Counted from the first letter of the stretch, positions 26,787 through 62,801 are shown. The stretch: DNA of 64,000 nucleotides from an uncultured Gammaproteobacteria bacterium (GCA_963797555.1 CAWCPV010000006.1:1-64000); one strand, 5' to 3'. Program-made: numbers and translations. Notes: generated by a model not told the origin, from the sequence alone.

Positions 26787-26996
26787 GGCAGGGATCAGGC
26801 GGCAAAGGGTCCGATCATGCTAGCCCCGGACACGCCGCTCGCCAATCGGCTGACGGGTCCCAAGCCGCGACCCCGGCCCCCGTTCCCCATTGCCGGCACG
26901 GGTCGTCGGCGCCCATCCCTGGTTGGGCCGTCCGGAGTCTGAGAGCTGGGTGGATAGACCTGCTGCGCGTGCCCATAGCGGCGTTGCCCCGTGCTC

Positions 26997-29160: not shown

Positions 29161-29234
29161 GCGACTCCACGGCACGGCTGCCGGGGCCACAGGGCCCCCG
29201 TGAGTTTGTGGATAAAATCTGCAGCGGAGCCCGG

Positions 29235-36039: not shown

Positions 36040-36130
36040 GTGGCAACTGACTCGGCGGTCGCAGCACCGCGCGCGGGGCCGGGCCCCGGCTCGTCCGCAG
36101 GACGCCCCACAGGGGTGGGCGTACAGGGAC
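36040..36130 (-). repeat. Copy E (partial) of the dispersed structured repeat family
   Basis: The reverse complement gives GGTGGTCACGGCGTACGTCCCTGTACGCCCACCCCTGTGGGGCGTCCTGCGGACGAGCC…, matching the 5' ~60 bp of the element. Confidence 0.4.
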
Positions 36131-36182
36131 GTACGCCGTGACCACCTCGAAACGCCGCGGTGGGGACGCACCGCAGATCGAT

Positions 36183-40011: not shown

Positions 40012-42147
40012 TCACAGGCGGATGGGGAGACGCCGCACCGGCGTCCCGGTAGCGGCGAACACTCCATTCGCCACCGCAGGCGCGATCGGCGGGGTGCCGG
40101 GCTCGCCGACCCCGCCGGGGTGCTCGTCGCTCCTGACGATGTGCACCTCCACGGCCGGCATCTCGGCGATGCGCAGCATCGGATAATCGTCGAAGTTGCC
40201 CTGCTGAACCCGACCGTCCTTGACCGTGATCTCGCCCTTCAGGGCCGCCGTAAGCCCGTAAACGATTCCGCTCTGCATCTGCGCCTCGATGGTGTTCGGG
40301 TTCACCACCGTGCCGCAATCGATGGCGCACACCACCCGATGGACCCGTACGTCCTTGTCTGCAACGGAGACCTCGGCGACCTGGGCGACATAACTCCCGA
40401 ACGAGTGGGCGACGGCGATACCTCGTTGACGGCCGGCCGGCAATGACTTTCCCCAGCCTGCCTTCTCGGCGGCCAACTGCAGCGCCCCCAGGTGCCGGGG
40501 ACTGCTCCCGAGCAGTTGGCGGCGCAACTCATACGGGTCCTTGCCGAGGGCAGCGGCCACTTCATCGAAGAAGCATTCCGTCACATAAGCGTTTTGCGAG
40601 CTTCCGACGGAACGCCAGTACCCCACCGGCACCCCTGGATTCACCATCGCGTAGGTAACCTCCAGGTTCGGGATCATATAGGGGATATTGGCCGCTGCCT
40701 CCACGGAAGATTGGTCGATGCCGTCCTTGATGCGACCCGGGGCAGCGCGGGCGCTGATGGACGGACCGGCGATCCGATGCACCCAGGCGACCAGGGCGCC
40801 GCCCTCCCCGAGCCCTGCGGAGAAGCGGCTGTAGGCGGCAGGCCGGTAAAAGTCGTGGCGGATATCGTCCTCCCGGGTCCACATCACCTTTACCGGCGCC
40901 TTGACGGCCTTGGCGATAGCCACGGCATCCTCGACGAAGTCGGTCTCCCCCCGGCGCCCGAACCCGCCCCCCAGGAACGTGGTGTGGACCCGGATGCGTT
41001 CGGGCGGCAGCCCGGTGATCTTCGCTGCGACCTGCTGCGTGGCGCCCTGGGCCTGGGTCGGGACCCAGATGTCGACGCCGTCCGCCCGCACGCCGGCAGT
41101 GCAGTTCATGGGCTCCATGCACGCATGGGCGAGATAGGCCACCTGGTAAACCGCATCGAGCGTCCTGGCGGCGCCTTTCAGGGCCGTCATGGCATCACCC
41201 TCGCGCCGAGCCACCACGCCCTTGTCCACGGCCTCCCGGAAGCGCCGGAAGATCTCGTCGCTGCTCAGCGTCGCATTGGGTCCTTCGTCCCAGTCCACCT
41301 TCAGGGCATCCCGCCCCTGCTTGGCGGCCCAAAAGCCGTCTGCGACGACCGCCACGCGGTCCCCCAGATTCACGATGTCGCGCACGCCGGTCACTTTCTT
41401 GGCGGCGCTCCCCTCCACGGACCGGACGTTGCCTCCGAACACCGGACAGCGCTGCACCGAGGCAATCAGCATTCCGGGAAGCCTGACGTCCTGACCGAAG
41501 CGCGCACTGCCGTCGACCTTCGCAGGCGTATCCAAGCGAGCTTTGGAGGTGCCGATGATCCGAAACTCCGGCGGCTCCTTGAGAAATACGGTCTGCGGCA
41601 CCGGCAATGTCGCCGCTTTCCCGACCAACTGACCGTAGCGCAGCCGCCGCCCGGTGGACTCGTGAATCACCTCACCCGCCTGGGCGCGGCAACTCCCCGG
41701 GTCGACGCCCCAGGTCGCGGCCGCCGCCTGCACCAGCATCTGGCGACCGGCGGCGCCGGCCTCACGGAGCTTCTGCCAAAAGCCCCGCACGGCGGTGCTC
41801 CCGCCGGTGAGCTGACGGCCGAGGATGGGATTGACGTAGGCGTCGCCGACCGGGGCGAACTCCGCGCGCACCTTGGACCAGTCGGCGTCGAGTTCTTCGG
41901 CCACGAGCATCGGGATGGAGGTCATGACCCCCTGCCCCATCTCCGAGCTTGCCACCCTGATGGTGACCGAGTCGTCGGGGTCGATGCGGATCCACGCATT
42001 CGGCTCGAAGGTCTTCTGCGGCACGGCGGTCTCCGCGAGTCCGTCGCGCACGAACGCAGGGAGATGCATCCCGATGAGGAGCCCGCCTCCCGCGGCGGCG
42101 CTCACCTTGAGGAAGGTCCTGCGGTCCATCTCGGGCCCGTCCGCCAT
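40012..42147 (-). CDS. IorB-type molybdopterin-binding oxidoreductase large subunit (aldehyde/isoquinoline 1-oxidoreductase beta-like) with Tat signal
   Basis: [14 protein letters not shown] twin-arginine signal. Colinear with CoxL/IorB MoCo-binding domains. 711 aa. Confidence 0.8.
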
Positions 42148-42148
42148 C

Positions 42149-42658
42149 TCATGCCTCCTTGGCAGCCAGCTCGGCGGCTCTCTTGATGGCGCGCCGGATG
42201 CGCTGGTAGGTCCCGCAGCGGCAGATGATGCCGGTCATGGCCTGATCGATGTCCGCGTCGCTCGGCTGGGGGGTCTTGGCGAGCAGGGCAGCAGCCGTCA
42301 GGATCTGCCCCGACTGGCAAAACCCGCACTGAGGCACGTCCTCGGTAATCCAGGCGCGCTGTACCGGGTGGCTCCGGTCCGCCGACAAGCCCTCGATGGT
42401 CACGACCCGCTTCCCGGCAACCGCCGACAACGGGGTCACGCACGAGCGCACGGCATCGCCATCGACCTGCACGGTGCAGGCCCCGCACAGGCCGACTCCG
42501 CATCCGTACTTGGTCCCGGTCATTCCGAGCACGTCCCGCACGGCCCAGAGCAGCGGCATACCGGGATCGGCCTCCACCTCCCGTTTCTCTCCGTTCAAGA
42601 CCAGTTGGACCATAGACCCTCCTTGTGCCGGAGCCATCGGGACAGGGGTTCGAAACAC
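42149..42658 (-). CDS. (2Fe-2S)-binding small subunit (IorA-like)
   Basis: [18 protein letters not shown]…[16 protein letters not shown]…CRCGTY. 1-nt gap to the large-subunit gene. Confidence 0.85.
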
Positions 42659-42857: not shown

Positions 42858-45836
42858 ATGGCACAGGACGACAGGGAAAGGGGCGGCCAGAAAAGGGCCT
42901 TCATCTCCAGCACCTCCATCGACCTGCCGGAGCACCGCAAGCAGGTGATCGAGGCCTGCCTGCGCATGGGCTACCATCCGGTGGGGATGGAGCACTGGCC
43001 CGCCCAGGATGCCGACGCCGAGACGGTGTGCCTGCGGGCGGTCGACCGGGCGGATCTGTTCATCGGCGTCTACGCCTTCCGTTACGGCTGGGTTCCGCCG
43101 GGACACGCGGTGTCCATCACCGAGCTGGAGTACCAGCGGGCGGTCGACAAGAAGAAGCCGCGGCTGCTGTTCTTCATGGACGAGGACTACCCGCTTCCCC
43201 CACGCCTGGTGGAGAAGGGGGAAGGCGGGAAGAAGCTGGAGGCGTTCAAGAAACGGGTCGGGACCGAGCGGGTGGGGAGCTTCTTCACCACCGAGAACGA
43301 CCTGCGCGGGCTGGTCGTCCAGGCCCTCGCCGCGCACCGCGAGACCGTCCCCCCGGAGCGGGAGCGCGCCGGCTCCCCCATCCCCGCAATCCCGCAGCCT
43401 TATGTCGCGCACCCCTATACCCTGCTCCAGTCCCGCCGCCTGGTGGGGCGCGATCGGGAGCTGAGTCTCCTCACCGACTGGGTGGCCAAGCCCATGAGCG
43501 AGGTATACGCGAGCCCGGTCCTCAACTTCATCGCCATCGGCGGGATGGGCAAGAGCGCGCTCACCTGGCACTTCTTCCAGGTCATCGCTCCCCAGGAGAT
43601 GCGCCCGCTCGCCGGGCGGCTGTGGTGGAGCTTCTACGAGCGCGACGCCGGCTTCGAGCGCTTCCTGCCCCACGCTCTGGCCTACTGCTCGGGCGAGCCC
43701 CTTGCGGAGGTGGAGCGGCTCGACCCCGAGACCCAGCAGGAGCGCCTGTGGCAGCTCCTCGATCAGCGGCCTTTCCTTCTGGTTCTGGATGGCCTCGAAC
43801 GCATCCTGGTGGCGTACAACCGCCTGGATGCCCCGCGCCTGCTCGACGACGAGTTGGACGAGGCCACCGTCAACCGCGTCGCCGACGCTGGCGGCCTGCC
43901 TCCGGGCAGCGGCGAGACCTACCTCGCCCGCCACCACCTGCGTGCCTGCACCGACCCGCGCGCCGGGCGCTTCCTGCAGCGGCTCACCCGCCTCCGCACC
44001 TCGCGCATCCTCGTCAGCAGCCGGCTCTACCCCGCCGAGATCCAAACCCGTACCGGTTCGCCTCTAGCCGGCAGCACCGTGGTCTTCCAGCAGGGGCTGG
44101 AGCCCGCCGACGCCTTGGCTCTCTGGCGGGAGCTGGGGGTGCGCGGGGCGCGCGACGAGCTGCTGCCCCTGTTCGAGAGCTTCGGCTACCACCCCCTTCT
44201 GCTCCAGGCCCTGGCCGGGGAGGTGGCGGACTTCCGTCCCGCGCCTGGCGACTTTGCCGCCTGGCGCGCGGCCCACCCCGCCTTCGACCCCGGCGCCCTG
44301 CCCCTCGCCCAGCGCCACCACCACATTCTGGAGCACGCCCTGGGAGGACTGGCCGAGGCCTCGCGCCGGGTGCTGTACACCCTGGCCGGCTTTCGCATGC
44401 CCACCGGCTACGCCACTCTGCGCGCCCTGCTGGTGGGGGAAGGGGCGCCCTGCGCCGACGAGGCGGCGCTCGACCGCACCCTCACCGAGCTGGAGGACCG
44501 GGGACTGGTGGGCTGGGAGCGGCGGAGCAACCGCTACGACCTCCATCCCATCGTCCGGGCTGTGATCTGGGCGGCCCTGCCCGAGGGCGACCGCCGCGCC
44601 GTGCTGGAGGAACTGCACGACTACTTCCGGGCCCAGCCCCTGGTGAAGGATTGGCGGAAGGAGGAGTCCCTCGCCGACCTGGAGCCGGCCATCGAGCTGT
44701 ACGACAAGCTCGTCGGCCTCGGCCGCTACCAGGAGGCATTCGAGCTGTTCCGCGACCGTCTCGATGACGCCACCCTCTACCGCCTGAGCGCCGCCCCCCG
44801 CCGGCTGGAGCTGCTGCGCGCGCTGTTCCCGGACGGGGAGGAGGCCCCGCCGCGCCTGGAGAAGGCTGAGGACCAGGGCTGGACCCTGAACGCTATGGCC
44901 CAGGCATATCAGTTCAGTGGCCAGCCGGGGGCTGCGGTGGGACTGTTCCGGCAGGGGGCGACCATCGCCGAGCGGGAAGGGAACAAGCGCAACCTCGGGG
45001 TCGGTCTCCGCAACGTCTCCGACGCGCAGCGGCTGAGCGGTGGACTCCACGGGGCGGAGCGGGCGGCGCGCGGGTCCCTGGTGCTGACGCGGCAGCCTGG
45101 GGAGGCATTCCGGGAGGCGGTGAGTCTCCAACGGCTCGGCACCGCCCTCGCCGCCCGGGGCGAGGGCGGTGCCGCCGCTCGGGCACTGATCCGTTCCAGC
45201 CGCCTTCAGGAAGCCCGGGATAATCGTCAGGGTGAGGGGGTGGTCGCCGCCTACCGCGCCGAGCTGGCGCTCTCCCAGGGCCGGGCCACCGAGGCCCGCG
45301 ACCTGGCCGAGCGCGCCCGGGCGCTGGCCGGGGTCTGGCGCCACGAGCATGACTTCATCCGCACCGCCCGCTTGCAGGGTGCCGCCGCCCTCCTGCTCGA
45401 CGACCTCGCCACCGCCGCCGAGCGTCTGCACCACGCCCTGCAGCGCGCCCGGACCGTGGAGCTGGCCGAGGAGGAGTTGCCCGTCCTCGTCGCCCTGGCC
45501 GAGCTGCACCGCCGGTGCGGCGAGCCCCAGATCGCCCGCGAGCTGCTGGAGCAGGTCTGGGAGCCCGCCGAGCGGGGCCCCTATCCCCTGTTCCACGCCG
45601 ACGCCCTGGTCGTGTTGGCCCAGATCGAGCGCGATGCCGGCAATACGCCGGGCGCCATCGCCGCCGCCACACGCGCCTTCCAACTCGCCTGGTGCGATGG
45701 CCCTCCCTACGCCTATCACTGGGGCCTGGAGGCCGCCCGCGCCCATCTGAAGGCCCTCGGTGCTCCCGAGCCCGAGCTGCCGCCCTTCGACCCGACCGCC
45801 CACGAGCCCATGCCGGAGGTAGAGATAGAGCCCTGA
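42858..45836 (+). CDS. NLR-like STAND NTPase: DUF4062-like N-terminal domain, NB-ARC/AP-ATPase core and TPR array
   Basis: N-terminus AFISSTSIDLPEHRKQ…LFIGVYAFRYGW…SITELEYQRA carries the conserved SST motif of DUF4062. Walker A FIAIGGMGKSALT and Walker B LLVLDGLE. C-terminal ~450 aa is TPR-like helical repeats. Confidence 0.75.
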   Translation: MAQDDRERGGQKRAFISSTSIDLPEHRKQVIEACLRMGYHPVGMEHWPAQDADAETVCLRAVDRADLFIGVYAFRYGWVPPGHAVSITELEYQRAVDKKKPRLLFFMDEDYPLPPRLVEKGEGGKKLEAFKKRVGTERVGSFFTTENDLRGLVVQALAAHRETVPPERERAGSPIPAIPQPYVAHPYTLLQSRRLVGRDRELSLLTDWVAKPMSEVYASPVLNFIAIGGMGKSALTWHFFQVIAPQEMRPLAGRLWWSFYERDAGFERFLPHALAYCSGEPLAEVERLDPETQQERLWQLLDQRPFLLVLDGLERILVAYNRLDAPRLLDDELDEATVNRVADAGGLPPGSGETYLARHHLRACTDPRAGRFLQRLTRLRTSRILVSSRLYPAEIQTRTGSPLAGSTVVFQQGLEPADALALWRELGVRGARDELLPLFESFGYHPLLLQALAGEVADFRPAPGDFAAWRAAHPAFDPGALPLAQRHHHILEHALGGLAEASRRVLYTLAGFRMPTGYATLRALLVGEGAPCADEAALDRTLTELEDRGLVGWERRSNRYDLHPIVRAVIWAALPEGDRRAVLEELHDYFRAQPLVKDWRKEESLADLEPAIELYDKLVGLGRYQEAFELFRDRLDDATLYRLSAAPRRLELLRALFPDGEEAPPRLEKAEDQGWTLNAMAQAYQFSGQPGAAVGLFRQGATIAEREGNKRNLGVGLRNVSDAQRLSGGLHGAERAARGSLVLTRQPGEAFREAVSLQRLGTALAARGEGGAAARALIRSSRLQEARDNRQGEGVVAAYRAELALSQGRATEARDLAERARALAGVWRHEHDFIRTARLQGAAALLLDDLATAAERLHHALQRARTVELAEEELPVLVALAELHRRCGEPQIARELLEQVWEPAERGPYPLFHADALVVLAQIERDAGNTPGAIAAATRAFQLAWCDGPPYAYHWGLEAARAHLKALGAPEPELPPFDPTAHEPMPEVEIEP

Positions 45837-46005
45837 ACAGCCCCTCGGGACCCGCGGAGCGCACGTGGCTGGCCCCGCCCTGCCCACCGCCCCTCCCCTC
45901 GGGTAGGAGAGGATTCATCCGCGACCTTGCAAGCCTCGGCGAGCTTGGACGGTCGCAGACCCATACGGATTCACAACCAGGCTGCGCCCCACAAGGCGTA
46001 GCCAT

Positions 46006-46080
46006 GTAGGTCGGGTTAGCGCAGCGTAACCCGACATCTCCCAACGTCGGGTTACGGCCTTGGGGCCTAACCCGACCTAC
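46006..46080 (+). promoter_or_regulatory. Nested perfect palindromes upstream of the second STAND gene
   Basis: GTAGGTCGGGTTAG…CTAACCCGACCTAC (14-bp perfect inverted repeat) encloses GTAACCCGAC…GTCGGGTTAC (10-bp inverted repeat). Lies ~120 bp upstream of the 46203 start. Confidence 0.4.
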
Positions 46081-46202
46081 CGTCTTGACGACACCCGCAA
46101 GCGAGCGGGATTTTTCGGGTGTCTTCGGCGCATTTTGACGCTAAATGCCTTGCAGCTTGAAACGATCTCGCGGGCTATACTCGCCCCGAGGGCCGGGCGC
46201 GC

Positions 46203-48908
46203 GTGACCACGATCTATCTCTCCTCCACCTACCGGGACCTGCAGGACCATCGTCGCGCCGTGTTCGACGCGCTGCGCCAGTCCGGCTACGCGGTCATCGC
46301 CATGGAGGACTATGTCGCCCGCGACGACCGGCCGGCGCCAGCGTGTCTCGCCGACGTGGAGCGCTGCAACGTCTACGTGGGGCTGTTCGCCTTCCGCTAC
46401 GGCTACTGCCCGCCGGCGGAGCACGGCAACCCCGATGGCCTGTCCATCACCGAGCTGGAGTTCCGCCGCGCCGACGCCAATCCGCGGGTCCACTGTCTGA
46501 CCTTCCTGCTGGACGAGAAGGCACCGTGGCCTCCCGACCAGATGGACGCCGTCACCGGTGAGAACGAAGGCGGAAAGCGCATCAAGGCGCTGCGCGAGTA
46601 CCTTGGCCGGGAGAAGATGGCGAGCTTCTTCGCCGCGCCCCAGGAGCTGGCCAGCAAGGTCCAGTCCGCGATCACCAAGCTCCTCGCCGGTGAGAGATCG
46701 GTGCCCAGTCCCGGCGAAGACCGGCAAGCGCCGGTCACCTGGGATGTCGATGAGCTGGGCTCACCCTATCCGGGCCTGATGCACTTCACCCCGCGTTACG
46801 CCCCTGTCTACTTCGGCCGGGAGGCCAAGGTGCGCGAGGTGCTGGACCGGCTGCACCTGCCGGCGGGGCGGTTCGTCATCGTCAGCGGCGACTCGGGCAC
46901 GGGCAAGTCCTCGCTGGTGGACGCCGGAGTGCTCCCGCGGCTCGCGGCCGGGGCCTTGCCGGGGGGTGTCGCGGCCGAAACGGTACGCATCGTGCCGAGC
47001 CAGGGGACCGACCCCTTCGACGCCCTCCTTCGCGGCCTGCACACTCAGGCTGAGGAGGCGGGCCTCGACCCGTTCACGACGGCCCGGACGCTGGCCCGGC
47101 GCCCGGCCGACCTGAGCCCGACGCTGAGCCAAATCATCGAACGGGGTCTGACGCGCGACGCCCTGGTCCTGTTCTTGGACCAGATGGAGGAGCTGTTCGC
47201 GGGCACCGACCGCGCGGCACTGGAGGTCAACTCCGCCGGGCCGTTCCTCGCCGGCCTTTACCGCACCGCCCAGAACGGCAGGCTCTGGGTGATCGCCACC
47301 ATCCGCAGCGACTGGCTGCATCGCTGCTACGCCCACCCGGATATGCTCGCCGTGCTGCGCGGCCCCGGCCATTACCCCTTGGGACAGGTGTTTCCCCACA
47401 CCATGCACGACATGATCGTGCGGCCCGCCCACTGTGCCGGCCTGCAGGTGTCCGAGTCCCTCGCCAGCCGGCTCATCGCGGATGCCGGGGCCGAGCCGGG
47501 CAGCCTCCCCCCGCTCGCCTTCGTGCTGCAGCGGCTGTTCGAGCTGCGCCGGGACGATGCCTTGAGCGAGGACGTGTACCTGCGGGACCTGGGCGGACTG
47601 GAGGGAGCGCTTTCCGGCCATGCGGCCGAGGCGGAGGCGGCAATGGGCCAGGACCTCGGCCCGCAAGCGATCGAGGATAAACTGCCGCAGGTCTTCGAGT
47701 CGCTGGTCCGGGTGAGCGTCCAGGGCCTGCCGACTCGCCGCCGTGCCAAGCTCTCCGCCATCCCGGGCGACGTGCGCCCGGTGATCGAGCACCTATTGCG
47801 GGCCCGGCTGTTGACGGCGGAGGGCGAGGGCGCGGAGGCCCTGGTGTCCGTGGCCCACGGGCGCCTGTTCGATGCCTGGCCGAGCCTCGCCCGCTGGGTC
47901 GCGGCCCACCAGGACGACCTGCGCCTGCTGCGCCAGGGGGAGCTGGACGCCGCGGAGTGGGCGCGGCAAGGCTATGACCTGGTCCACCTCTGGCACCCGA
48001 AGCGCTTGAAGCGTCTGCAGCGGGTCATCGATGCCCTGCCGCCCGACCGGGCTGACCCCGAGGTGCGCGAATTTGCCTGGCCCCAGACGCGGATGCTCCA
48101 GCGGGTGGTCGCAGGTGCCATGAGCCACGACCACGAGGAGCGGCGCACGGTAGGGACCTACCTCGCCGAGCTGGGCGACCCGCGACCCGGGGTCGGCGTG
48201 GGTTCCGACGGCAACCCCGACATCGACTGGGTGCCCATCGCTGGCGGCAAGGTGGTCCTGGAGGAGAAGGCGGGTCAGGCCAATGTCGAACCCTTCGAGC
48301 TGGCCCGCTATCCCGTCACCAACGCTCAGTTTCATGCCTTCACAGCCGCCGAGGATGTCTACCGCGACCCCCGCTGGTGGCAGAACATGCCGGATGGCGC
48401 GAGCGACGGACCCGCCGCATCCCGCTGGCCCGAGACGAGCCACCCGCGGGTGGAGGTCTCCTGGTACGAGGCGGTAGCCTTCTGTCGCTGGCTGTCCCAC
48501 CGGCTCGGGTTCGAGGTGCGCCTGCCCACGGAGTTCGAGTGGCAGCAGGCAGCGACGGGCGGTGATCCCCAAAACGTCTACCCGTGGGGCGGGGAGTGGG
48601 ACGCCGCGCGCTGCAACAGCGCCGAGAGCGGCCTCAACCGCACCACCGCAGTTGGGCTCTATCCTGCCGGGGCGAGCGCTCAGCGCGTACTTGACCTGGC
48701 GGGGAACATCTGGGAATGGTGCCTGAACAAGTACGACGAACCGACTGAGCCGATGGGGTCCCCTGAGGACCGGGGGGCGTTGCGCGGCGGTTCGTGGAAC
48801 TTCAACTCCGACTACTGTCGCGCCGCCTCCCGCACGTCCGTGCACCAGGACTTCCGCAACGACAACATCGCGTTTCGTGTGGTTCGTCCCGTATCTTCAG
48901 ATCACTGA
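46203..48908 (+). CDS. STAND-like NTPase: DUF4062-like N-terminal domain, P-loop NTPase core, C-terminal FGE-sulfatase (C-type-lectin fold) domain. Putative DGR target.
   Basis: N-terminus TIYLSSTYRDLQDHRRAV…VYVGLFAFRYGY…SITELEFRRA, with the SST motif, is paralogous to the N-terminus of 42858. Walker A VSGDSGTGKSSL and Walker B LVLFLDQMEE. C-terminus RYPVTNAQFHAF…WYEAVAFCRWLS…WEWCLN…GGSWN…FRVVRP matches the FGE/SUMF1 fold. Apparent GTG start. Confidence 0.75.
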   Translation: MTTIYLSSTYRDLQDHRRAVFDALRQSGYAVIAMEDYVARDDRPAPACLADVERCNVYVGLFAFRYGYCPPAEHGNPDGLSITELEFRRADANPRVHCLTFLLDEKAPWPPDQMDAVTGENEGGKRIKALREYLGREKMASFFAAPQELASKVQSAITKLLAGERSVPSPGEDRQAPVTWDVDELGSPYPGLMHFTPRYAPVYFGREAKVREVLDRLHLPAGRFVIVSGDSGTGKSSLVDAGVLPRLAAGALPGGVAAETVRIVPSQGTDPFDALLRGLHTQAEEAGLDPFTTARTLARRPADLSPTLSQIIERGLTRDALVLFLDQMEELFAGTDRAALEVNSAGPFLAGLYRTAQNGRLWVIATIRSDWLHRCYAHPDMLAVLRGPGHYPLGQVFPHTMHDMIVRPAHCAGLQVSESLASRLIADAGAEPGSLPPLAFVLQRLFELRRDDALSEDVYLRDLGGLEGALSGHAAEAEAAMGQDLGPQAIEDKLPQVFESLVRVSVQGLPTRRRAKLSAIPGDVRPVIEHLLRARLLTAEGEGAEALVSVAHGRLFDAWPSLARWVAAHQDDLRLLRQGELDAAEWARQGYDLVHLWHPKRLKRLQRVIDALPPDRADPEVREFAWPQTRMLQRVVAGAMSHDHEERRTVGTYLAELGDPRPGVGVGSDGNPDIDWVPIAGGKVVLEEKAGQANVEPFELARYPVTNAQFHAFTAAEDVYRDPRWWQNMPDGASDGPAASRWPETSHPRVEVSWYEAVAFCRWLSHRLGFEVRLPTEFEWQQAATGGDPQNVYPWGGEWDAARCNSAESGLNRTTAVGLYPAGASAQRVLDLAGNIWEWCLNKYDEPTEPMGSPEDRGALRGGSWNFNSDYCRAASRTSVHQDFRNDNIAFRVVRPVSSDH
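48801..48890 (+). repeat. Variable repeat VR1 at the 3' end of the DUF4062-NTPase-FGE gene
   Basis: ~90 bp that is ~80% identical to the template repeat at 49062..49151. Most mismatches fall where the template has adenines (AAC codons). Confidence 0.55.
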
Positions 48909-49061
48909 TCACTGAGATGCGCGCGGAGCGCCGACATCGCCGATCCGGTCGCCCGTGGAACGGCGGGCGGTGCGTGGCGGCTCGCGGACCGTTTCCTCCG
49001 GACCGAAACGGGCCGCACGTAGTGCGCCCGAATGGGGCACGCCAGGATGGCGTGCATCAAC

Positions 49062-49151
49062 ATCGACTCCGACAACTGTCGCGCCGCCAACCGCAACAAC
49101 AACCACCCGGACGACCGCAACGACAACATCCGGTTTCGTGTGGTTCGTCCC
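49062..49151 (+). repeat. DGR template repeat TR_B (adenine/AAC-rich copy of the FGE 3' end)
   Basis: ATCGACTCCGACAACTGTCGCGCCGCCAACCGCAACAACAACCACCCGGACGACCGCAACGACAACATCCGGTTTCGTGTGGTTCGTCCC. Lies in the track ORF 49032..49427, which translates as NIDSDNCRAANRNNNHPDDRNDNIRFRVVRP. No promoter or RBS context found. Confidence 0.6.
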
Positions 49152-49362
49152 ACATCCTGCCCGCTTCCAGGCGCGGCTCCGGCGGCGTGGGGCCGGGCCC
49201 CGCGGGGGCACCACCCTCCCGCAACGCCGGTCGAGCACGCTTGGCCGGCCGAGGCGGAAAGGGCTAGATGGCGCAGGTCGATCCGGTCCGCACCGGGGCA
49301 CATCCCTCCGGTCGGGCGCATACCAAACCAGGGCGCATCCTGGAGGCGACTCCCGATGCGCC

Positions 49363-49520
49363 CTACCTTCCATCCGCCTCGACGCGCCGGCGCCAACCGC
49401 CGAGCAGCCGCCCGATCTCCGCGGTGATCCGGCTCACGTGCTCGTACTGCCCGTCCTTCAGCCACGCCCAGCGGTTGATGAGACGCAGGTAGACCCGCAG
49501 CGATTGCAGCGCCACGTCGG
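49363..49520 (-). pseudogene. Avd-like (accessory variability determinant) C-terminal remnant
   Basis: …LRVYLRLINRWAWLKDGQYEHVSRITAEIGRLLGGW aligns with the C-terminus of the intact Avd at 62360..62758 (…LRLEKLRFLFRLSKDLGYLDLRRYEHVARSVDEVGRLVGGW). The N-terminal half is missing. Confidence 0.35.
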
Positions 49521-49576
49521 CGCGCTGCAGGGCGCGCGCCCGGGCGAAGCGTGCCCTAGTCGAGCGGCTCGCTGCC

Positions 49577-49927
49577 GTGCGGCTCACCCTGCACGCGGAC
49601 AGCGCCCAGGTCCTGCCGGTCGCGTGCGGCATTCCCTGGCTCGGCTTTATCGTGTACCCGGACCATCGGCGCGTGAAGCGGCGCAAGGTGGTGGCCGCGA
49701 GCCGCCGGCTCACCGCCCGCTACGACGCCTGGCGCCGGGGCGACATCACCTTCGCCGAACTGGACGCCAGCGTGCAGGGCTGCATCGGCCACGTGCGCTA
49801 CGCCGATTCCTGGGGACTACGGGAACATGTGCTGGCCCGGTTCGACCTGTCCGAGCGATGGCCGTGGAAGCCCAGGACCCGGAAACAACCGCGAAGGCGC
49901 GCTGCGCGCGCCTTCAGAAACCAGTGA
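49577..49927 (+). pseudogene. DGR-type reverse transcriptase 3' fragment (thumb region only)
   Basis: LHADSAQVLPVAC..PWLGFIVYPD…R…L…G…E……H…R…L is colinear with the C-terminal ~110 aa of the intact RT at 61282..62373 (LHPDKTLVLATAEPATFLGFELHANG…). No finger/palm motifs are found upstream in any frame. Confidence 0.5.
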
Positions 49928-52801
49928 TCAGCGATCTGGAGATGGGGGACGAACCACCCGAAAACCGTAGTAGTCGTTGCGGGAATCCGGGCCGCCCCCG
50001 CTGCGGCGGGCGGCACGACAGAGGTAGCGAAGGGAGCACCAGCAACCGCCGCGCAGCGCCCGCAACTCGTCGCCCTTTGTGCCCGTGCGTTCGGGGTTTT
50101 GGTATTCGTTCAGGCACCACTCCCAGACGTTTCCCGCCAGATCGAACACGCCGTGGGGGCTCGCCCCGCCGGGGTAGAGCCCGACGGCGGTGGTGCGGTC
50201 GGGGCCGCCCTCGGCGCTGTTGCAGCGCGCGGCATTCCACTCCCGGCCCCAGGGGTAAACGTTGTTCGGGTCGCCGCCCGTCGCCGCCTTCTCCCACTCG
50301 ACCTCCGTCGGCAGCCGAACCTCGAAGCCGAGCCGATCCGAGAGCCAGCGGCAGAAGGCCACCGCCTCGTACCAGGCAACCGTCTCGCGCGGATGGTTGC
50401 CCTCCGGCCACCTAGGCTCCCAGGCCGCATCGAATCGCTGCGCAAGGCCCTTCCACCACGCGGGATTCGCAAAGCCCGACGGGTCGTCCAGGAAGCAACG
50501 GAACTGGCGATTCGTGACGGGGTAGCGGGCGATGTGGAAAGCGGGCAGGGTGCGCCGCTCGCCCTCTTGGTAGCGGAACTCGCCAGCGGGGACGTCGCCC
50601 CAGTCGATGTCCGGGAGCCACAGCCCAGTCTTCGGGTCCCGGGCGACGCCAACGCCGGGGCGGGTGTCCAGCATCTCCCCCTCCACCTCCACCGCGAGAG
50701 CCTGGCCAATGGCAGCGCGGGCAGCAGGGTCGGGGTCCCGATCGAGGTCGCTGAGCCGCGGGGTCCAGGCGGCCCGCACCCGCTCGAGGGTCGCGGCCGG
50801 AACCCTGGCCCCGCTGCGGGCGAGGCACTGGCCGGCCACCCAGGGCTGGGCGTCGGCCAGCCAGTCGATGATGAGGGTGCAGTCCTCCGGGTAGATGCCC
50901 GCGAGGAGCACCGTCGCCTCCTCCCAGCCGCTGCGCTGCCACCAGCGCTGCACCGGCCAGAGGTCGGCCGCGGCCAGCTCGCGGGCTTGGATCTTGGCCT
51001 GCATCCCCAGGGCGACGAAATACTCCTGCAGGAGCTGGTGGCCGAAGCGGACGTACCCGCCCGTGGGCTCGATCAGGCTCGCCCTGACCGCGAGGCGGTA
51101 CAGCTCCGGCTGCAAGAGCAGGGCGGCATCCCGCGCCGACACCGAGGTCACCGCCTCCGCGCGCCCCGTGTCCTCGCCGTAGCGCTGCATGCTCCAGGCC
51201 ATGCGCCCGGCGGCATCGAGCAGCCGCTCACCGTCAGGGGTCACTACCAGCGACCGGCCGGCCGGGTCCCGCCGACCGAGCCCCTCGCGCTCGATGAGGG
51301 TGTCGACGAAGTAACGGAACAGCACGCCGCGGTTGGCCGGAACCGTCCCGCTGCGCCGATACACCCCGAGCAGCATGACCAGCATGTAGGGGTTGCGCGC
51401 GAGGCGCATGAGGTTGCGGGGCGAGGCCACCTGCTCCGCCCAGACCCGGTAGTCGTGCCCGCTGGTCTTGTGGTAGACATCCGGGCTATCGCGCGGGACC
51501 TCCCGCGCCGAGAAGAACAGCTCCAGGTCGGCACCGGCCGCCTGCCACCTATCCCAGACGGAGCGCACCGCCTCGCCGCCGGCGACAGCCCAGAAGAATG
51601 CCTCGGCGGCCTCGGCGCCGCGCCGGGCACGCTCGGCAGCAGGCAGGTCTTCGGGCTGGGCGGCCGTGAGATAACGCTCGGCGAAGTCGGCGATGCCCGC
51701 AATGGTCAGGGGCTGGATGCGGATGGTGTCGAGCGCGAGGGCCAGGTCCTCACCGTAGTCGTCCTGACGGCAGGTGGCCAGCACCGGAATCGCTTGCGGG
51801 CGGGTCCTGTTCAGCCAGGTCTTTATCCGGCCCGCCTTGTCGGCCCAGGCGCCGGTGGGCAGCTCGTTCAAGCCGTCGAGGAGCAACACGGCGCGGCGGT
51901 CGGTCATCAGGGGGGGAAGGTCGGGCTGCAGCGGCTCGACCTGGCCGGCAAGAAAGTCTTCGAAGGGCGTTGCGTCAGTCCAGTCCCCGAGCTTCACGAG
52001 CAGCGGCAGCGGGGCCCGACCGTCCTCCCGCGCCCGGGCGGCGAGATCCGCGGCGAGCCGCCACAGGGTCGTGGTCTTGCCAGCCCCGGGCGGGCCGAGC
52101 AGCACGGCGCGCGTGATGTCGGGCGTCGGGAAAGCTTCGGTGATGTCCTCGAAACGCCGGGTCTGCTTCTGGCTGCCCGCGCTTCCCACGGCCTCGAAGG
52201 GGATGTGCTGCAGCTCCGGCCGGGCCACCAGCATGGGCAGCGGCGCCTTGTCGTCGCCGCCCAGCTCGGCGGTGCCGGCGAGCGGCGTGTACAGGTCCAC
52301 GTGCTGAAGCTCCCGCAGCTCCAAGCGCCGCAGGTAAGCCAGCTCCCGCTCGCGCGGCTGCTGGGCCGCGAGCGGCGGGGCGGGCACCGGGGCCGGACCT
52401 GGGGCCGGCAGACTCGCCAGCAGCCGGTCCAGGGCACCCTGGTAGTCGCGGAAGAGATCCAGCGCCTGGAGTCGGGCCAGGTCCGCGGGCAGCGGACAGT
52501 CCTCGACCCGCACCGGGAAGATGGGCCGGTCGCGCCGCCGCGCCATGCGCCGCTCCCGCGCCACCCAGGGCCGGGCGTTGGCGGTCGCGCTCACCAGCAC
52601 CACGAACGCGTAGGCCGCAGCGATGGCGTCTGCGATGCGCTGCTCCCACTCGGCTCCCGGCTGGATGTCGCTCACGTCGATCCAGCAGCGGTGGCCGGCC
52701 TCCTCCAGGTCACGCCCAATCTCGCGAGCAAGATCGGCGTTCTCCCGCGCATAGCTGATGAAGATGACGCTGTCCACAGAAAAAGACCGGGTTGGAGCCA
52801 A
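49928..52801 (-). CDS. NLR-like STAND NTPase: N-terminal TIR domain, NACHT-type NTPase, C-terminal FGE-sulfatase (C-type-lectin fold) domain. Putative DGR target.
   Basis: TIR: VIFISYARENADLAREIGRDLEEAGHRCWIDVSDIQPGAEWEQRIADAIAAAYAFVVLVS. Walker A LLGPPGAGKTTTLWRL and Walker B VLLLDGLNEL. C-terminus RYPVTNRQFRCF…WYEAVAFCRWLS…WEWCLN…GGCW…FRVVRP. Its stop codon abuts the RT-fragment stop (tgatca). Confidence 0.75.
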   Translation of the reverse strand: MAPTRSFSVDSVIFISYARENADLAREIGRDLEEAGHRCWIDVSDIQPGAEWEQRIADAIAAAYAFVVLVSATANARPWVARERRMARRRDRPIFPVRVEDCPLPADLARLQALDLFRDYQGALDRLLASLPAPGPAPVPAPPLAAQQPRERELAYLRRLELRELQHVDLYTPLAGTAELGGDDKAPLPMLVARPELQHIPFEAVGSAGSQKQTRRFEDITEAFPTPDITRAVLLGPPGAGKTTTLWRLAADLAARAREDGRAPLPLLVKLGDWTDATPFEDFLAGQVEPLQPDLPPLMTDRRAVLLLDGLNELPTGAWADKAGRIKTWLNRTRPQAIPVLATCRQDDYGEDLALALDTIRIQPLTIAGIADFAERYLTAAQPEDLPAAERARRGAEAAEAFFWAVAGGEAVRSVWDRWQAAGADLELFFSAREVPRDSPDVYHKTSGHDYRVWAEQVASPRNLMRLARNPYMLVMLLGVYRRSGTVPANRGVLFRYFVDTLIEREGLGRRDPAGRSLVVTPDGERLLDAAGRMAWSMQRYGEDTGRAEAVTSVSARDAALLLQPELYRLAVRASLIEPTGGYVRFGHQLLQEYFVALGMQAKIQARELAAADLWPVQRWWQRSGWEEATVLLAGIYPEDCTLIIDWLADAQPWVAGQCLARSGARVPAATLERVRAAWTPRLSDLDRDPDPAARAAIGQALAVEVEGEMLDTRPGVGVARDPKTGLWLPDIDWGDVPAGEFRYQEGERRTLPAFHIARYPVTNRQFRCFLDDPSGFANPAWWKGLAQRFDAAWEPRWPEGNHPRETVAWYEAVAFCRWLSDRLGFEVRLPTEVEWEKAATGGDPNNVYPWGREWNAARCNSAEGGPDRTTAVGLYPGGASPHGVFDLAGNVWEWCLNEYQNPERTGTKGDELRALRGGCWCSLRYLCRAARRSGGGPDSRNDYYGFRVVRPPSPDR
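49946..50035 (-). repeat. Possible decayed variable repeat VR2 at the 3' end of the TIR-NACHT-FGE gene
   Basis: Related to TR_B (…TGTCG.GCCGCC.GCCGCAGCGGGGGCGGCCCGGATTCCCGCAACGACTACTACGGTTTTCGGGTGGTTCGTCCC). Many mismatches fall at template adenines, but additional non-adenine differences are present. Confidence 0.35.
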
Positions 52802-53163
52802 GAAATCGGTTCATTGTAGAGATATCTACCGTGCTCTGGCCCCGTCTTTCTCTCGGCCAACTGGCGCTAAATTTCTGGCTACTGCACCATGGTGTGCACG
52901 AGTACTGGCTCGTCCACCCGCTCGATCGGGTCCTGACTGTCTACCATTCAGTAACGGGTGAGTACCGCAAGCCCGGAATCCGCGTAACCACGGGTGCAAC
53001 GCCTGTGGGCATCCTGCCGGGGCTCCAGATCGACTGGGGCCGGCTCTCCCCCACCGGCGTACCGACAGGGATTGGGCGGGCCGGAGCGCCACGGAGAGGC
53101 GTTGCGCCCGCAGGTCCGAAAAACGGGAAGGCGCGCTGCGCGCCTCCAGCAATCAGCAATTAG
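52792..53163 (+). pseudogene. Possible Uma2-family (DUF820) endonuclease C-terminal fragment
   Basis: …HEYWLVHPLDRVLTVYHSVTGEY… resembles the C-terminal motif of Uma2/DUF820 proteins. The N-terminal catalytic part is absent and the ORF overlaps the TIR gene start. Confidence 0.25.
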
Positions 53164-53280: not shown

Positions 53281-54063
53281 TCACCAGACCGCCATTCCGA
53301 TGACTCCGAACGCCACCAGCGCCAGTACCAGGATCGGGCCGAACGGCTGGTCCAGGACCAAAGCCAGCTCGAACGCGAGAAGGTAGGCGAGGATGCTCGT
53401 CCCCACCGCGATGGCCAGCGAGATCTTCCAGTTGGGGCCGGCCCGGTATGCGACCATGGGAGGCACGAAAACCAGCCCGAACGCGGCCATGACGCCGATC
53501 GACGACGTGGCGAGGGCAATACCGGCGGCAATCAACAGGTCGAAGTACAGGTGAAAGCGTCTGGGTGAATGCCCGCTCGCCAGAAAGAAATCCGGAAACA
53601 TGCGCTCCAGCAGCAACTTCGGCGACAGCCAGCGCATCACCACCGCGCACACCATCATGAACGCCGCCGCGACCGTCAGGTGGGAGGCGCTCGTAAAGTA
53701 GAGCTGGCCATCGTACAGCGCGTGCCCCAGGTGTTCGGCCATTGGCACGTTGGCGAGCACCAGAATTCCGCATCCCCACCCCAGCAGCATGAACAATGCG
53801 TAGCCATTGTTGCCGCCCCGCGATGTCCACGCCTTTACGACCGCAGCGGAAGCCGAAGCGACGATCGCGCCGACATAAAAGGGAGCGGCCACGATGGCGG
53901 CAGCCAGCGACCCGGCTGCGGCCAACTGGGCAAGGGCCAGCGCGGCGAGCCATTCCTCGCGCAGCAGCAGGTACATGCCGAGGAGCGGGAGCACGAAGGC
54001 GAACACCAGGCCGGTGAAGAAGGGCAGCCGGAACACCGGGTCGAAGACCGCCAGAGGGCTCAT
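53281..54063 (-). CDS. Metal (Zn/Mn) ABC transporter permease, ABC-3/ZnuB-like
   Basis: 8-TM ABC-3 permease profile from the ATG at 54063. An ATGA start/stop overlap with the upstream ATPase gene. Confidence 0.8.
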   Translation of the reverse strand: MSPLAVFDPVFRLPFFTGLVFAFVLPLLGMYLLLREEWLAALALAQLAAAGSLAAAIVAAPFYVGAIVASASAAVVKAWTSRGGNNGYALFMLLGWGCGILVLANVPMAEHLGHALYDGQLYFTSASHLTVAAAFMMVCAVVMRWLSPKLLLERMFPDFFLASGHSPRRFHLYFDLLIAAGIALATSSIGVMAAFGLVFVPPMVAYRAGPNWKISLAIAVGTSILAYLLAFELALVLDQPFGPILVLALVAFGVIGMAVW

Positions 54064-54632
54064 TTGCCGACCTCTACGAGACGGGTGCAGACCTTGTCCA
54101 GGAACCGGTGGTCGTGGCTGATCAAGATGATGGCGTGGCCGTCGGTCAGCTTGACCAGCTCGTGTTCCATATACTCCAGGCCCTTGGGATCCACATTGTT
54201 GGTCGGCTCGTCCAACATCACTAGGTCGACGGGTGCCTTCAGGCAGGCCCACACCTGCAGAAATTGCAGTTGTCCGCCGCTCAACCGGTCGAGCCGCCTG
54301 TCCAGGAGTTGTCGAATCCAATTCGGCAGCGAGTCGCTGTCGGCTCCGGTCAAGGCCAGGAGCTCGCGGCCCGAGAGGGGGATGTCTTCCAGAGGAAGGG
54401 GATTCTGCTGCTGATGAGCGATGCGCAGCCCCGGTCGCTTCTCGATGCGGCCGGCAAAGACCTTGACGGTGCCCCCGATCGCTTTCATCAGGGTGGATTT
54501 GCCCGAACCGTTGGGGCCGCGGATGCAGACGATCTCGCCCCGAGCGACGGAGAAGCTTATCGGACCAACCACCGGACGCTCATAGCCCGCCGCAACGCCC
54601 TCGACCGACAGCAATGCCGAATCCGGCGGCAT
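54060..54632 (-). CDS. Metal ABC transporter ATP-binding protein (ZnuC-like)
   Basis: Walker A GPNGSGKST, signature LSGGQLQ, Walker B LVMLDEPT. ATG at 54632. The track ORF extends to a GTG at 54719 that overlaps the binding-protein gene. Confidence 0.75.
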   Translation of the reverse strand: MPPDSALLSVEGVAAGYERPVVGPISFSVARGEIVCIRGPNGSGKSTLMKAIGGTVKVFAGRIEKRPGLRIAHQQQNPLPLEDIPLSGRELLALTGADSDSLPNWIRQLLDRRLDRLSGGQLQFLQVWACLKAPVDLVMLDEPTNNVDPKGLEYMEHELVKLTDGHAIILISHDHRFLDKVCTRLVEVGK

Positions 54633-54708
54633 TTCCGCGGCCGCATCCTCTATCGAATGGGTCCCGAGCGCACCCGGCTGACGCCCGCCGGACCCCGCTG
54701 CAGCCGTG

Positions 54709-55644
54709 TCAAGGGCCACGGGTGTGGGACTCGATCGCGGCCAGCAAGCGGCTGATCGTGTCGTCGTAAAGGCTGAACAGGTCCTTCGCCTGCGGGGTCC
54801 CCCCGATGGTCGCGGCGACTGCGACCGCCGGGATGTGAATGCGCTGGGCCAGCCAATCGGAGGCGTCCGGCGACTTGTAGGTCGCCCTGACGATGAGCTT
54901 GGCCGGGTGCACTCGCTGCTGGTCCAGCAGCTCTTCCAGATGCGCAGAAGTGGGTTCCACGCCCGGCTTGGGCTCCAGAGAGCCCATGACCGGCATGCCT
55001 ATCCAGTGAAAGAGATAGGTGATCTCCTTGTGGTGCTCGATCACGGGCACTCCCTTCAGTGGTGCAGCTTCCTGCTCCCACTTCCTCATCGCAGCCTCCC
55101 AGCGCTCGGTGAACGAGCGCAGACGGGACTGGTAGGCGCTGGCACCTTGGGGGTCTGTCTCGATCAAGCGCTTGGTCAGCTCATCGGCCGCCAGCAGGAT
55201 ATTCTGCGGGTCGTAAACCAGGTGCGGATTGCCCACCGGATGAAGATCGCCGAGCGAACGGTCGAGCACGGCCGGCCGCTCGATGACTTGGACGTAATCC
55301 GCCACTTCCAGATGTCCCGGCTTTCCGAGCTGGATCTTGTCGTTCCCGGATTGGGCCAGGACCGGCGGCAGCCAACCGACCTCGAGCTCGGCCCCCGCGC
55401 ACACCACGAGGTCGGCGCGGCGTGCCGCGGCGATCAAGCTGGGCTTTGCTTGAACCCGATGCGGGTCTTGTAGGCCCGTCGTGGCGACAAAGACGCGGGC
55501 CCGGTCGCCCGCGATCTCGGTCGTGAGAGCGCCCCACTCCGGCTCACACGCGAACACCTCGACGGCCGCGGATGCGGGTGCGGGTGCGGGTGCGACAGCC
55601 GCCCATAACGTCAGACAAATGAACCACTTAGGCCAATTTCTCAT
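54709..55644 (-). CDS. Metal ABC transporter substrate-binding protein (TroA/ZnuA-like)
   Basis: Signal peptide and a cluster-9 SBP profile with conserved metal-ligand His/Glu/Asp positions. Confidence 0.8.
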   Translation of the reverse strand: MRNWPKWFICLTLWAAVAPAPAPASAAVEVFACEPEWGALTTEIAGDRARVFVATTGLQDPHRVQAKPSLIAAARRADLVVCAGAELEVGWLPPVLAQSGNDKIQLGKPGHLEVADYVQVIERPAVLDRSLGDLHPVGNPHLVYDPQNILLAADELTKRLIETDPQGASAYQSRLRSFTERWEAAMRKWEQEAAPLKGVPVIEHHKEITYLFHWIGMPVMGSLEPKPGVEPTSAHLEELLDQQRVHPAKLIVRATYKSPDASDWLAQRIHIPAVAVAATIGGTPQAKDLFSLYDDTISRLLAAIESHTRGP

Positions 55645-60903: not shown

Positions 60904-61154
60904 GGCCTGTCGCGGAGCTTCGAGCCAGACCACTCTAGTGGAGCGAGCGCTGCCGCCGCAAGGGCGCTGAATCCTCGGTCCGGTAGCCGGCTGGAGGGCG
61001 ACCCCGATTCCCTGTGTAAGACATCCCGGCGGCTGTCGCTCCCGCCGGGAGCCAGGACAGCCGCCGGGCACCGCTCTCATCATGACCGGCGTTGGACGCG
61101 CGAGCGCACTCCTGGCCCGTCCTTGAACGGGCCGGCTCCCGCCTCGCAGCGTAC

Positions 61155-61267
61155 TGGCAACACGAAACCCCAGGTTGTTGTTCCGATCGGAGACGGTATT
61201 CCTGTTGCGGTTGGCGGAGCGCACGTTCTGCGGGGTATTGTTCCAACTGCCGCCGCGGTTCACGCGC
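61155..61267 (-). repeat. DGR template repeat TR_A
   Basis: On the minus strand it reads …AACCGCGGCGGCAGTTGGAACAATACCCCGCAGAACGTGCGCTCCGCCAACCGCAACAGGAATACCGTCTCCGATCGGAACAACAACCTGGGGTTTCGTGTTGCCAG. Compared with the VR at 62805-62920 there are 18 substitutions at TR adenine positions and only 2 elsewhere. Confidence 0.75.
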
Positions 61268-61281
61268 CGCCCTGACGCCGG

Positions 61282-62373: not shown

Positions 62374-62758
62374 CGCGGTCGGCCTTCATCCAGCCCCCCA
62401 CCAGCCGCCCCACCTCGTCCACGCTGCGGGCGACGTGCTCGTAACGGCGCAGATCGAGGTAGCCGAGATCCTTCGATAGCCGAAACAGAAAACGCAGCTT
62501 CTCCAGCCGCAGGTTCACCCGGCGCAGGATCGGCGCCGCCTCGCGCGTGTAGGTGGCCTCGATCAGCCCTTCCAGCAAGTCCAGCGCCGTGCCCTGGATG
62601 CGGTCGCCCAGCAGGAAGCGCTGGCTGCGCGGGAACTTCTCCACCGTCGGGATCATCCACAGCAGAAACTGGTAGGCCCGCTCCAACGCCGGGCCGTGGC
62701 GCCGCGCCGGGTCGGGCTGCCGACCCGGCGCGGCGCGCGGTGGCTGGGTGCTCGCCAC
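62360..62758 (-). CDS. Accessory variability determinant (Avd), four-helix-bundle protein
   Basis: 132 aa. ERAYQFLLWMIPTVEKFPRSQRFLLGDRIQGTALDLLEGLIEA matches the bAvd / TIGR02436 four-helix-bundle family. Overlaps the RT start by ~14 nt. GTG start. Confidence 0.75.
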   Translation of the reverse strand: MASTQPPRAAPGRQPDPARRHGPALERAYQFLLWMIPTVEKFPRSQRFLLGDRIQGTALDLLEGLIEATYTREAAPILRRVNLRLEKLRFLFRLSKDLGYLDLRRYEHVARSVDEVGRLVGGWMKADRGAQG

Positions 62759-62801
62759 GACGGGGTAAAGGGGTAAAGAAGCTAAGCCCTAAGCTGCCGT
62801 T

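Follow-up and report, generated by a model that had tools for sequence, protein, structure and literature searches.

The window analysed here, a stretch of 64,000 nucleotides from an uncultured Gammaproteobacteria bacterium (GCA_963797555.1 CAWCPV010000006.1:1-64000), contains an island of three long open reading frames (ORFs), which we call g1, g2 and g3. ORF calling on the window places them at 42858-45836 (+), 46203-48908 (+) and 49928-52801 (-). The three products share a tripartite layout (3/3), in which an N-terminal effector domain is followed by a P-loop NTPase of the STAND type (signal transduction ATPases with numerous domains; a probable assignment in g1) and by a C-terminal sensor. 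The genes g2 and g3 are convergent, and the 1,019-bp spacer between them (48909-49927) holds the remains of a diversity-generating retroelement (DGR). These two genes are fossil DGR targets, that is, intact receptors with a frozen, germline-like specificity that are not currently programmable.

Architecture of the three receptors

The 901-aa product of g2, the first of the two former DGR targets, consists of a DUF4062 head (Pfam 6.7e-22, 77.9 bits against a cut-off of 24.7), an nSTAND1 module (9e-80, aa 188-591, 269.6 bits against 27.1) and an FGE-sulfatase sensor with a C-type lectin (CLec) fold (9.4e-41, aa 687-895). The second former target, g3, encodes 957 aa from a TTG codon and combines a TIR_2 head (2e-29, 103 bits against 28) with a NACHT NTPase (7.7e-13, 49.1 bits against 26.7; Walker A G236-T244, Walker B L307-E313) and, likewise, an FGE-sulfatase/CLec-fold sensor (5.7e-43). 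A database entry for g3 begins 8 codons later and comprises 949 aa, and the start at 52777 is probably the correct one. The two proteins are alignable only over their last ~260 residues, at 53% identity, and their NTPase modules come from different STAND clades. Searches of the PDB with g2 retrieved the DUF4062 domain of TEP1 (11gz, E 1.5e-8) and the DGR variable protein TvpA (2y3c), and the matches of the g2 and g3 sensors to the latter identify them as the TvpA-like CLec type of DGR variable proteins. An enzymatic function of these domains was considered and rejected, since the NCBIfam equivalogs for FGE, EgtB, SenA, PvdO and GldK score 45-61 bits against cut-offs of 350-500. Apart from such far-sub-threshold enzyme equivalogs, the NCBIfam search gave only the NACHT antiphage model EruA, at 24.6 bits against a cut-off of 1000.

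The third receptor, the 992-aa product of g1, has a DUF4062 head at aa ~10-160 (Pfam E 1.7e-24 over aa 13-95, 86.2 bits against the PF13271 cut-off of 24.7), which is paralogous to that of g2 (37% identity, E 1e-33). It is followed by a P-loop NTPase, probably of the STAND type, with Walker A at G228-S233 and Walker B at L310-E314, by predicted helical and winged-helix domains, and by a TPR sensor (aa ~576-966), whose C-terminal repeats match Pfam TPR_12, with TPR_MalT below its cut-off. For the NTPase itself, Pfam returns only AAA_16, at a sub-threshold score. A Foldseek search with an AlphaFold2 model of g1 (mean pLDDT, the predicted local distance difference test score, of 75) found the archaeal STAND-TPR protein 6mfv as the best PDB match (801 columns, E 2e-12); NRC2 and Apaf-1 rank lower. 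The predicted fold therefore supports the assignment of g1 to the STAND class, with an NTPase core that is modelled at low confidence.

We rejected the possibility that g1 is part of a DGR cassette, since its close homologues occur as single genes whose contexts are unrelated. In all, 2,233 homologues were found, 54-69% identical to g1 over their full length and across phyla. Not being targeted by a DGR, g1 is a receptor that stands alone as one gene; it is highly conserved, unrelated to the DGR pair, and happens to adjoin g2 and g3. In an alignment of 25 family members from several phyla, the mean column identity is 68%, TPR sensor included, which is unusually high for an immune-type receptor.

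The residues expected to be of functional importance are retained throughout, as judged from family alignments of 13-24 homologues each. In g1, the SST motif, E89/E91, GGMGKS (Walker A) and LDGLE (Walker B) are invariant, and the head matches the structure of KpSwz (PDB 10wc, E 3e-11) such that E91, within S-I-T-E-L-E-Y, falls on the alanine of the E97A substitution. All invariant motifs of the g2 family (SST, SITELE, GxGKSS and DQxEE) are likewise retained, and E86, in the motif SITELEF, is the counterpart of g1 E91 and of the catalytic glutamates KpSwz E97 and TEP1 E1008. The TIR domain of g3 aligns with TIR-APAZ and PdTIR; its E83 lines up with the glutamate of the 'LKE' motif that TIR-APAZ chains conserve, does not vary in 14 homologues, and is accompanied by the other family-invariant residues. 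We take the glutamate of the 'LKE' motif to be the catalytic residue, hence the putative role of g3 E83. With these putative catalytic glutamates (g1 E91, g2 E86 and g3 E83) and the Walker A and B motifs intact and family-invariant, all three proteins look functional at the sequence level. Decay of g2 and g3 into pseudogenes was rejected, as both ORFs are of full length and keep all family-invariant residues. Each protein starts directly with its effector domain and has neither a signal peptide nor a membrane segment ahead of it, so that all three are presumably cytoplasmic.

An earlier note on this DNA had described three adjacent large genes of 992, 901 and 957 aa, with DUF4062, DUF4062 and TIR heads, a STAND P-loop NTPase as the common middle module, a TPR array as the sensor of the first, and FGE domains of the C-type lectin fold as those of the other two. 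The ORFs were found as described, and the profile searches that it had proposed for DUF4062, TIR and FGE placed the Pfam assignments above threshold. The STAND module is backed by curated profiles in g2 and g3 and by Walker motifs and a fold match in g1. The note's broader view of these proteins as receptors resembling NLRs (nucleotide-binding, leucine-rich repeat receptors), with heads of the NAD+-hydrolysing (NADase) type, agrees with the predicted domains, the candidate catalytic glutamates and the Walker motifs.

A remnant DGR between g2 and g3

The DGR is recognizable from a triplet of related repeats. A template repeat (TR1, 49059-49156, +), rich in AAC, lies in the spacer, and variable repeats (VRs) form the 3' ends of both genes: VR_g2 (48798-48895, +), which makes up direct repeat D8 with TR1, and VR_g3 (49941-50038, -), which yields the inverted repeats I5, I6 and I9 with TR1 and VR_g2. 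TR1 is about 80-81% identical to VR_g2 and 72% identical to VR_g3. The 3' core TTTCGTGTGGTTCGTCCC occurs in only three copies in the window, namely in TR1, VR_g2 and VR_g3. TR1 lacks the 5' segment GCGCGGCGG-TCCTGG, which is present in both window VRs and in the TRs of the related loci L001, L005, L046 and L085.

The protein-coding part of the retroelement is reduced to two stumps. Searches with tblastn, using the proteins of the intact relatives L001 and L085 as queries, located codons 67-110 of an avd gene of about 112-117 codons at 49387-49518 (-; 69-73% identity) and codons 254-359 of a 359-codon reverse transcriptase (RT) gene at 49556-49891 (+; 74% identity to L001, 57% to L085). Pfam bAvd matches the avd remnant over its C-terminal half only and below the cut-off. 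The RT remnant has no Pfam RVT_1 match; the fingers and palm are gone, and with them the YVDD motif, which occupies codons 231-235 in the reference. Since avd and RT are divergent and their starts abut in intact cassettes, one deletion of ~960 bp, with its junction within 49519-49555, would explain both stumps. The spacer measures 1,019 bp here, compared to about 1.9-2.1 kb in the intact relatives L001, L005 and L085.

The mismatches between the repeats tell of a past and of a present state. TR1 and VR_g2 differ at 20 positions over 100 nt, 11/20 of them at template adenines (hypergeometric P = 2e-3), and TR1 and VR_g3 at 24 positions over 87 nt, with 14/24 at template adenines (P = 4e-5). Both pairs are thus still A-enriched, which indicates that adenine mutagenesis once shaped both VRs. 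In most intact relatives, however, mismatches fall almost exclusively on template adenines (20/21 and 24/25 in L001, 19/19 in L046, 11/11 in L023, 16/17 in L029 and 10/10 in L027), so that the 9/20 and 10/24 non-A mismatches of VR_g2 and VR_g3 compare with 0-1 per pair in these five loci. A second DGR in the window, discussed below, has 18/21 mismatches between its template (TR2) and its VR at template adenines. According to the codon table, six non-A differences lie at third codon positions and encode the same amino acid as the codon expected from adenine mutagenesis alone, for example ACG and GTG in VR_g2 and CGT, GGG, GAT and CGG in VR_g3; these changes bear the mark of ordinary drift under purifying selection since the last homing event. 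At some further sites, both VRs differ from TR1, for instance where TR1 has GAC and the TRs of relatives have AAC, and these are best explained by mutation of TR1 itself.

These observations show that adenine mutagenesis from TR1 once rewrote the ligand-binding C-termini of both g2 and g3, that a deletion of about 1 kb removed the 5' parts of avd and RT, and that TR1 and both VRs have since gathered ordinary non-A substitutions. With RT and avd deleted and the repeats drifted, the specificities of g2 and g3 are frozen. The earlier note had regarded the receptors as a DGR-diversifiable, programmable set. The TR/VR triplet with its A-enriched mismatches bears out the DGR part of this claim; the programmability falls with the loss of RT residues 1-253 and Avd residues 1-66. 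That triplet is also what speaks for an active, cis-encoded DGR that would make g2 and g3 a currently programmable pair. But with a local RT that lacks its catalytic domain and an avd without its N-terminal 66 codons, cis activity is refuted, and we give this explanation almost no chance of being right.

Unlike the genes, the RNA part of the cassette has been kept. Immediately 3' of TR1, at 49226-49377 (+), lies a structured RNA element, for which an alignment of five loci predicts 46 base pairs, 16 of them with compensatory changes. Besides the window, these loci are L001 (9500-9645), L005 (13016-13165), L046 (13020-13175) and L085 (9965-10166, -). A covariance model built for this element, R1, scores 138 bits at TR1 and finds no copy near TR2 or in Nitrospira-type DGR loci, and the element has no match in Rfam. 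In the model DGR of a Bordetella phage, bRT, Avd and the template-flanking RNA are all required for cDNA synthesis (PMC6182149; 10.1101/2023.10.23.563531), and, by analogy, the element is probably the TR-flanking RNA needed for RT- and Avd-dependent cDNA priming.

A G+C-rich hairpin with a 10-bp stem (GAAGGCGCGC/GCGCGCCTTC), read from the sequence at 49893-49915, 13 nt past the g3 stop codon, is a candidate for either a terminator or a VR-flanking hairpin.

Relatives and genomic surroundings

The nearest relatives of g2 and g3, at about 60-72% identity, are found in gammaproteobacterial metagenome-assembled genomes (MAGs) and in Chromatiales. The metagenomic locus L001, whose g2 homologue is 62% identical, shows the intact order: target 1 (+), TR, bAvd (-, 117 aa), RT (+, 372 aa) and target 2 (-), the last of which is a DUF4062-NACHT-FGE protein; its spacer measures 2,057 bp, and a transposase gene is a neighbour. 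L005, from a gammaproteobacterial MAG, has the same cassette with a DUF4062-nSTAND1 and TIR-NACHT-FGE pair, the latter 40% identical to g3 over the full length. In L085, a g3 homologue of 72% identity stands beside an intact RT (359 aa) and bAvd (112 aa). Directly adjacent to this closest intact relative of g3, at L085 3106-4865, lies a DarT/Macro (DarG-like) toxin-antitoxin defence pair.

Both architectures are widespread. That of g2 comprises >100 clusters at 40-62% identity, about 890-915 aa in length, from Chromatiales, Nitrospira, Desulfuromonadales and others, annotated as 'nSTAND1 domain-containing NTPase', 'SUMF1/EgtB/PvdO family' or 'DUF4062 domain-containing protein'. The g3 architecture also comprises >100 clusters, and its members vary in their heads, which may be TIR, trypsin-like, CHAT, Mrr or EAD domains. 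We looked for RT genes at 40 loci from species-representative genomes, each encoding a full-length g2 homologue; 34 had usable flanks. Within 10 kb, a near-full-length RT was present in 7/34 and fragments in 2/34, while ~25/34 had none, so that RT-less targets are the rule and not the exception. An independent case of decay was seen in Thiorhodococcus drewsii AZ1 (L004/L006, 12680-13768), which keeps two convergent targets and an inverted RT scrap of 41 codons; no avd and no TR were detected. The neighbours there are MmeI-type restriction-modification and TraG genes.

Outside the island, the window contains an intact and apparently active second DGR at 61146-63968 (-), identified with Pfam and tblastn. 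It consists of a TPR+FGE-sulfatase target (62802-63968) with its VR (62807-62933), avd (~62381-62686), an RT with the motif YVDDL (RT2, 61282-62373) and, downstream of the RT, TR2 (61146-61272). That TR2 could template g2 and g3 was considered and rejected, as it differs from VR_g2 at 49 and from VR_g3 at 74 positions and has a different 3' end. RT2 shares only 46-47% identity with the cognate RT clade and no R1 RNA lies near TR2, which makes it unlikely that RT2 serves g2 and g3 in trans. An ORF for a NadE-like NAD-synthase/CN-hydrolase (58816-61263, -) starts inside TR2; a weak FGE-sulfatase match of its residues 3-36 is translated TR2, and the true start probably lies further downstream.

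We put the probability that the island represents three independent, single-polypeptide, NLR-like and NADase-armed receptors, two of them with frozen former-DGR specificities, at roughly 0.7. Six observations weigh against this reading. First, PADLOC made no system-level match; g3 was hit by TIR-domain models alone, and g1 and g2 by no model at all. Second, the g1 NTPase has no NCBIfam match, and no curated profile backs its STAND class. Third, the NTPase core of the g1 model (aa 162-412) has pLDDT values of 30-60 and hence a low confidence. Fourth, L005 has an intact RT and also many non-A mismatches (7/21 and 12/35), and given this sizeable fraction, the mismatch ratio alone is supportive of DGR decay, not decisive. 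Fifth, the good preservation of TR1 and its flanking RNA could mean continued use in trans instead of recent loss. Sixth, the genome outside the 64-kb window could contain a cognate RT/Avd or a TR that matches better.

The last two points lead to an alternative in which g2 and g3 are still diversified in trans, with TR1 and its RNA as the template and with an RT/Avd encoded elsewhere, either in the intact DGR at 61-64 kb or in a copy outside the window. It would fit this alternative that all conserved stems of the RNA element fold, that an intact DGR RT and avd are encoded 11 kb away, that in species-representative genomes about three quarters of the g2 homologues lack an RT within 10 kb, and that, for Thiohalocapsa, activity in trans was inferred where DGR loci are incomplete (PMC10907252). 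However, the high non-A fraction and the synonymous third-position drift in the VRs are at odds with continued diversification, TR1 lacks the 5' homology segment found in all intact TRs, and the nearby system is a poor donor, given the divergence of RT2 from the cognate clade, a TR of its own without R1 RNA, and the inability of TR2 to template these VRs. We therefore consider diversification in trans improbable and favour frozen specificities.

If the specificities are indeed frozen, it is conceivable, though on balance unlikely, that DGRs act on NLR-like receptors only transiently, and that deletion of RT and avd fixes a useful specificity, so that a receptor that was adaptive becomes innate and germline-encoded. 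The stumps in the window, the independent loss in Thiorhodococcus drewsii and the ~three quarters of g2 homologues that are RT-less within 10 kb would fit this idea. Alternatively, the preserved TR1 and RNA element could mark a hub-and-spoke arrangement that is served by a distant RT.

The G+C content of the island is 0.68-0.74, compared to 0.61-0.69 in the flanks. On the left, the island is bounded by an IorAB-like pair of 2Fe-2S and molybdopterin oxidoreductase genes (40012-42658) and on the right by ZnuB-like and ZnuA genes (53281-55644), with a Uma2-family endonuclease fragment (52792-53163, +) at its right edge that covers only positions 120-170 of the 172-position Pfam profile and scores 24.9 bits, below the cut-off of 27. 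This is the bracket that the earlier note had given, including the Uma2 fragment, albeit at a sub-threshold score. The comparison of genomic contexts, which that note had also suggested, found homologues variably placed and no core synteny: neighbours differ in every genome compared, which argues against conserved core synteny and fits a variably placed accessory island.

Two repeat features lie elsewhere in the window. A second, paralogous IorAB-like pair at ~21090-23614 gives rise, together with that at 40012-42658, to the direct repeats D1, D3, D9 and D13 (70-76% identity). Furthermore, a family of interspersed repeats of ~90-210 nt and 68-85% identity, with a GGAGGTACGCCATG-like motif inside, occurs in both orientations, with copies at 4870-5033, 13351-13563, 26950-27166, 29217-29425 and 36106-36178. 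The family has no Rfam match, and no convincing ORF was found at the one copy looked at. Rfam and tRNA scans of the window found nothing.

Proposed mode of action and known systems

By its domain composition, each protein would begin with a head that hydrolyses NAD+ (DUF4062 for g1 and g2, a canonical TIR domain for g3), continue with a central P-loop module acting as an oligomerization switch, and end in a C-terminal ligand sensor, either TPR (g1) or C-type lectin/FGE (g2 and g3). DUF4062 has been described as a TIR-like NADase that executes abortive infection, in Swarozyc (KpSwz) as well as in human TEP1 (10.64898/2026.05.01.722283, preprint), and experimental work on Evangelion also links a DUF4062 NADase to abortive infection (10.64898/2026.06.25.731849). 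By analogy with Avs, bNACHT and Swarozyc, binding of a ligand to the sensor would release the NTPase; the ensuing oligomerization would gather the TIR or TIR-like heads, deplete NAD+ and abort the infected cell.

A different possibility is that the receptors are not antiviral at all, but respond to endogenous or kin ligands and, in a bacterium that is multicellular or lives in aggregates, control signalling or regulated cell death. This family of DGR-linked STAND sensors is enriched in multicellular and aggregate-forming bacteria (PMC7159879, PMC10907252). The conservation of g1 at 54-69% identity across phyla, TPR sensor included, is unusual for a sensor in an arms race, and PADLOC has no model for these proteins. 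On the other hand, Avs proteins that recognize conserved phage proteins typically have conserved sensors, too. Moreover, both DUF4062 and TIR heads have experimentally established antiphage NADase roles, and homologues of the island genes adjoin restriction-modification, DarT/DarG and mobile-element genes. A non-antiviral role thus appears quite improbable to us.

The earlier note had implied that FGE sensors on cytoplasmic TIR/DUF4062 NTPases are new. This novelty does not hold, as there are precedents (PMC7159879, PMC10907252, 10.64898/2026.01.04.697583, 10.64898/2026.05.01.722283). NTP-dependent conflict systems with DGR-diversified FGS/CLec effectors were described by Kaur et al. (2020, PMC7159879). 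For DGRs of 'clade 5D' in multicellular bacteria, Doré et al. (2024, PMC10907252) reported two nSTAND1/NACHT and CLec-VR targets, some with TIR heads, as well as incomplete DGR loci, remote targets and possible trans activity. FGE-sulfatase sensors have also been noted among defence-associated STAND clades (10.64898/2026.01.04.697583, preprint). Both DGR-diversified STAND/CLec sensors and DUF4062 as a TIR-like NADase are therefore already described in kind, and the locus neither overturns current understanding nor constitutes a new kind of system. Its value lies in being a clean natural example of a DGR-targeted NLR-like pair after the loss of its diversifier, which can be compared with close relatives that are intact. 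The DUF4062 head on DGR-targeted STAND proteins and the detailed anatomy of a decayed cassette are points not spelled out in the cited texts; the term DUF4062 has 0 occurrences in the main text of PMC10907252 and PMC7159879. The covarying RNA element 3' of the template is an addition for this DGR clade. We expect the locus to be useful to annotators of defence islands and to DGR biologists interested in the frequency of targets that have become frozen or depend on trans-acting elements.

Among named defence systems, Avs and bNACHT share the tripartite effector-NTPase-sensor logic of the island and provide its activation model; they differ from it in that no PADLOC Avs/NLR model matches and that the sensors of g2 and g3 have CLec/FGE folds instead of TPRs. 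Likewise, no Pfam matches to a MoxR AAA+ ATPase, a vWA component or VMAP were found among the island ORFs. The island falls outside the named families Avs, bNACHT and EruA and outside the MoxR-vWA ternary systems.

With regard to their heads, g1 and g2 resemble Swarozyc and Evangelion, which have a DUF4062 head with the SST motif and a catalytic glutamate in the S-x-T-E-x-E-[YF] region. These proteins, however, are short and have a small auxiliary domain, with Swarozyc being triggered by the phage portal, whereas in g1 and g2 the head is joined to a STAND NTPase and to a sensor of the TPR or CLec kind, in proteins of about 900-1,000 aa. In the eukaryotic proteins TEP1, NWD1/2 and NPHP3, too, a STAND NTPase and a repeat sensor have DUF4062 directly upstream; theirs are WD40-repeat sensors in eukaryotic contexts, and the likeness implies no orthology. 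The PH0952-type STAND-TPR protein (6mfv) is the best structural match to the NTPase, predicted winged-helix and TPR part of g1, which also has the sub-threshold hit to TPR_MalT; this protein and the MalT-like TPR regulators are regulatory in function and lack a NADase head.

Finally, the closest counterparts of g2 and g3 as a cassette are the clade 5D DGRs. Like these, the locus comprises two targets with a central NTPase and a C-terminal, VR-bearing FGE/CLec domain, as well as one TR, avd and RT. It is set apart from them by the reduction of RT and avd to stumps, by the degraded TR/VR pattern, and by the DUF4062 head on one of its two targets.

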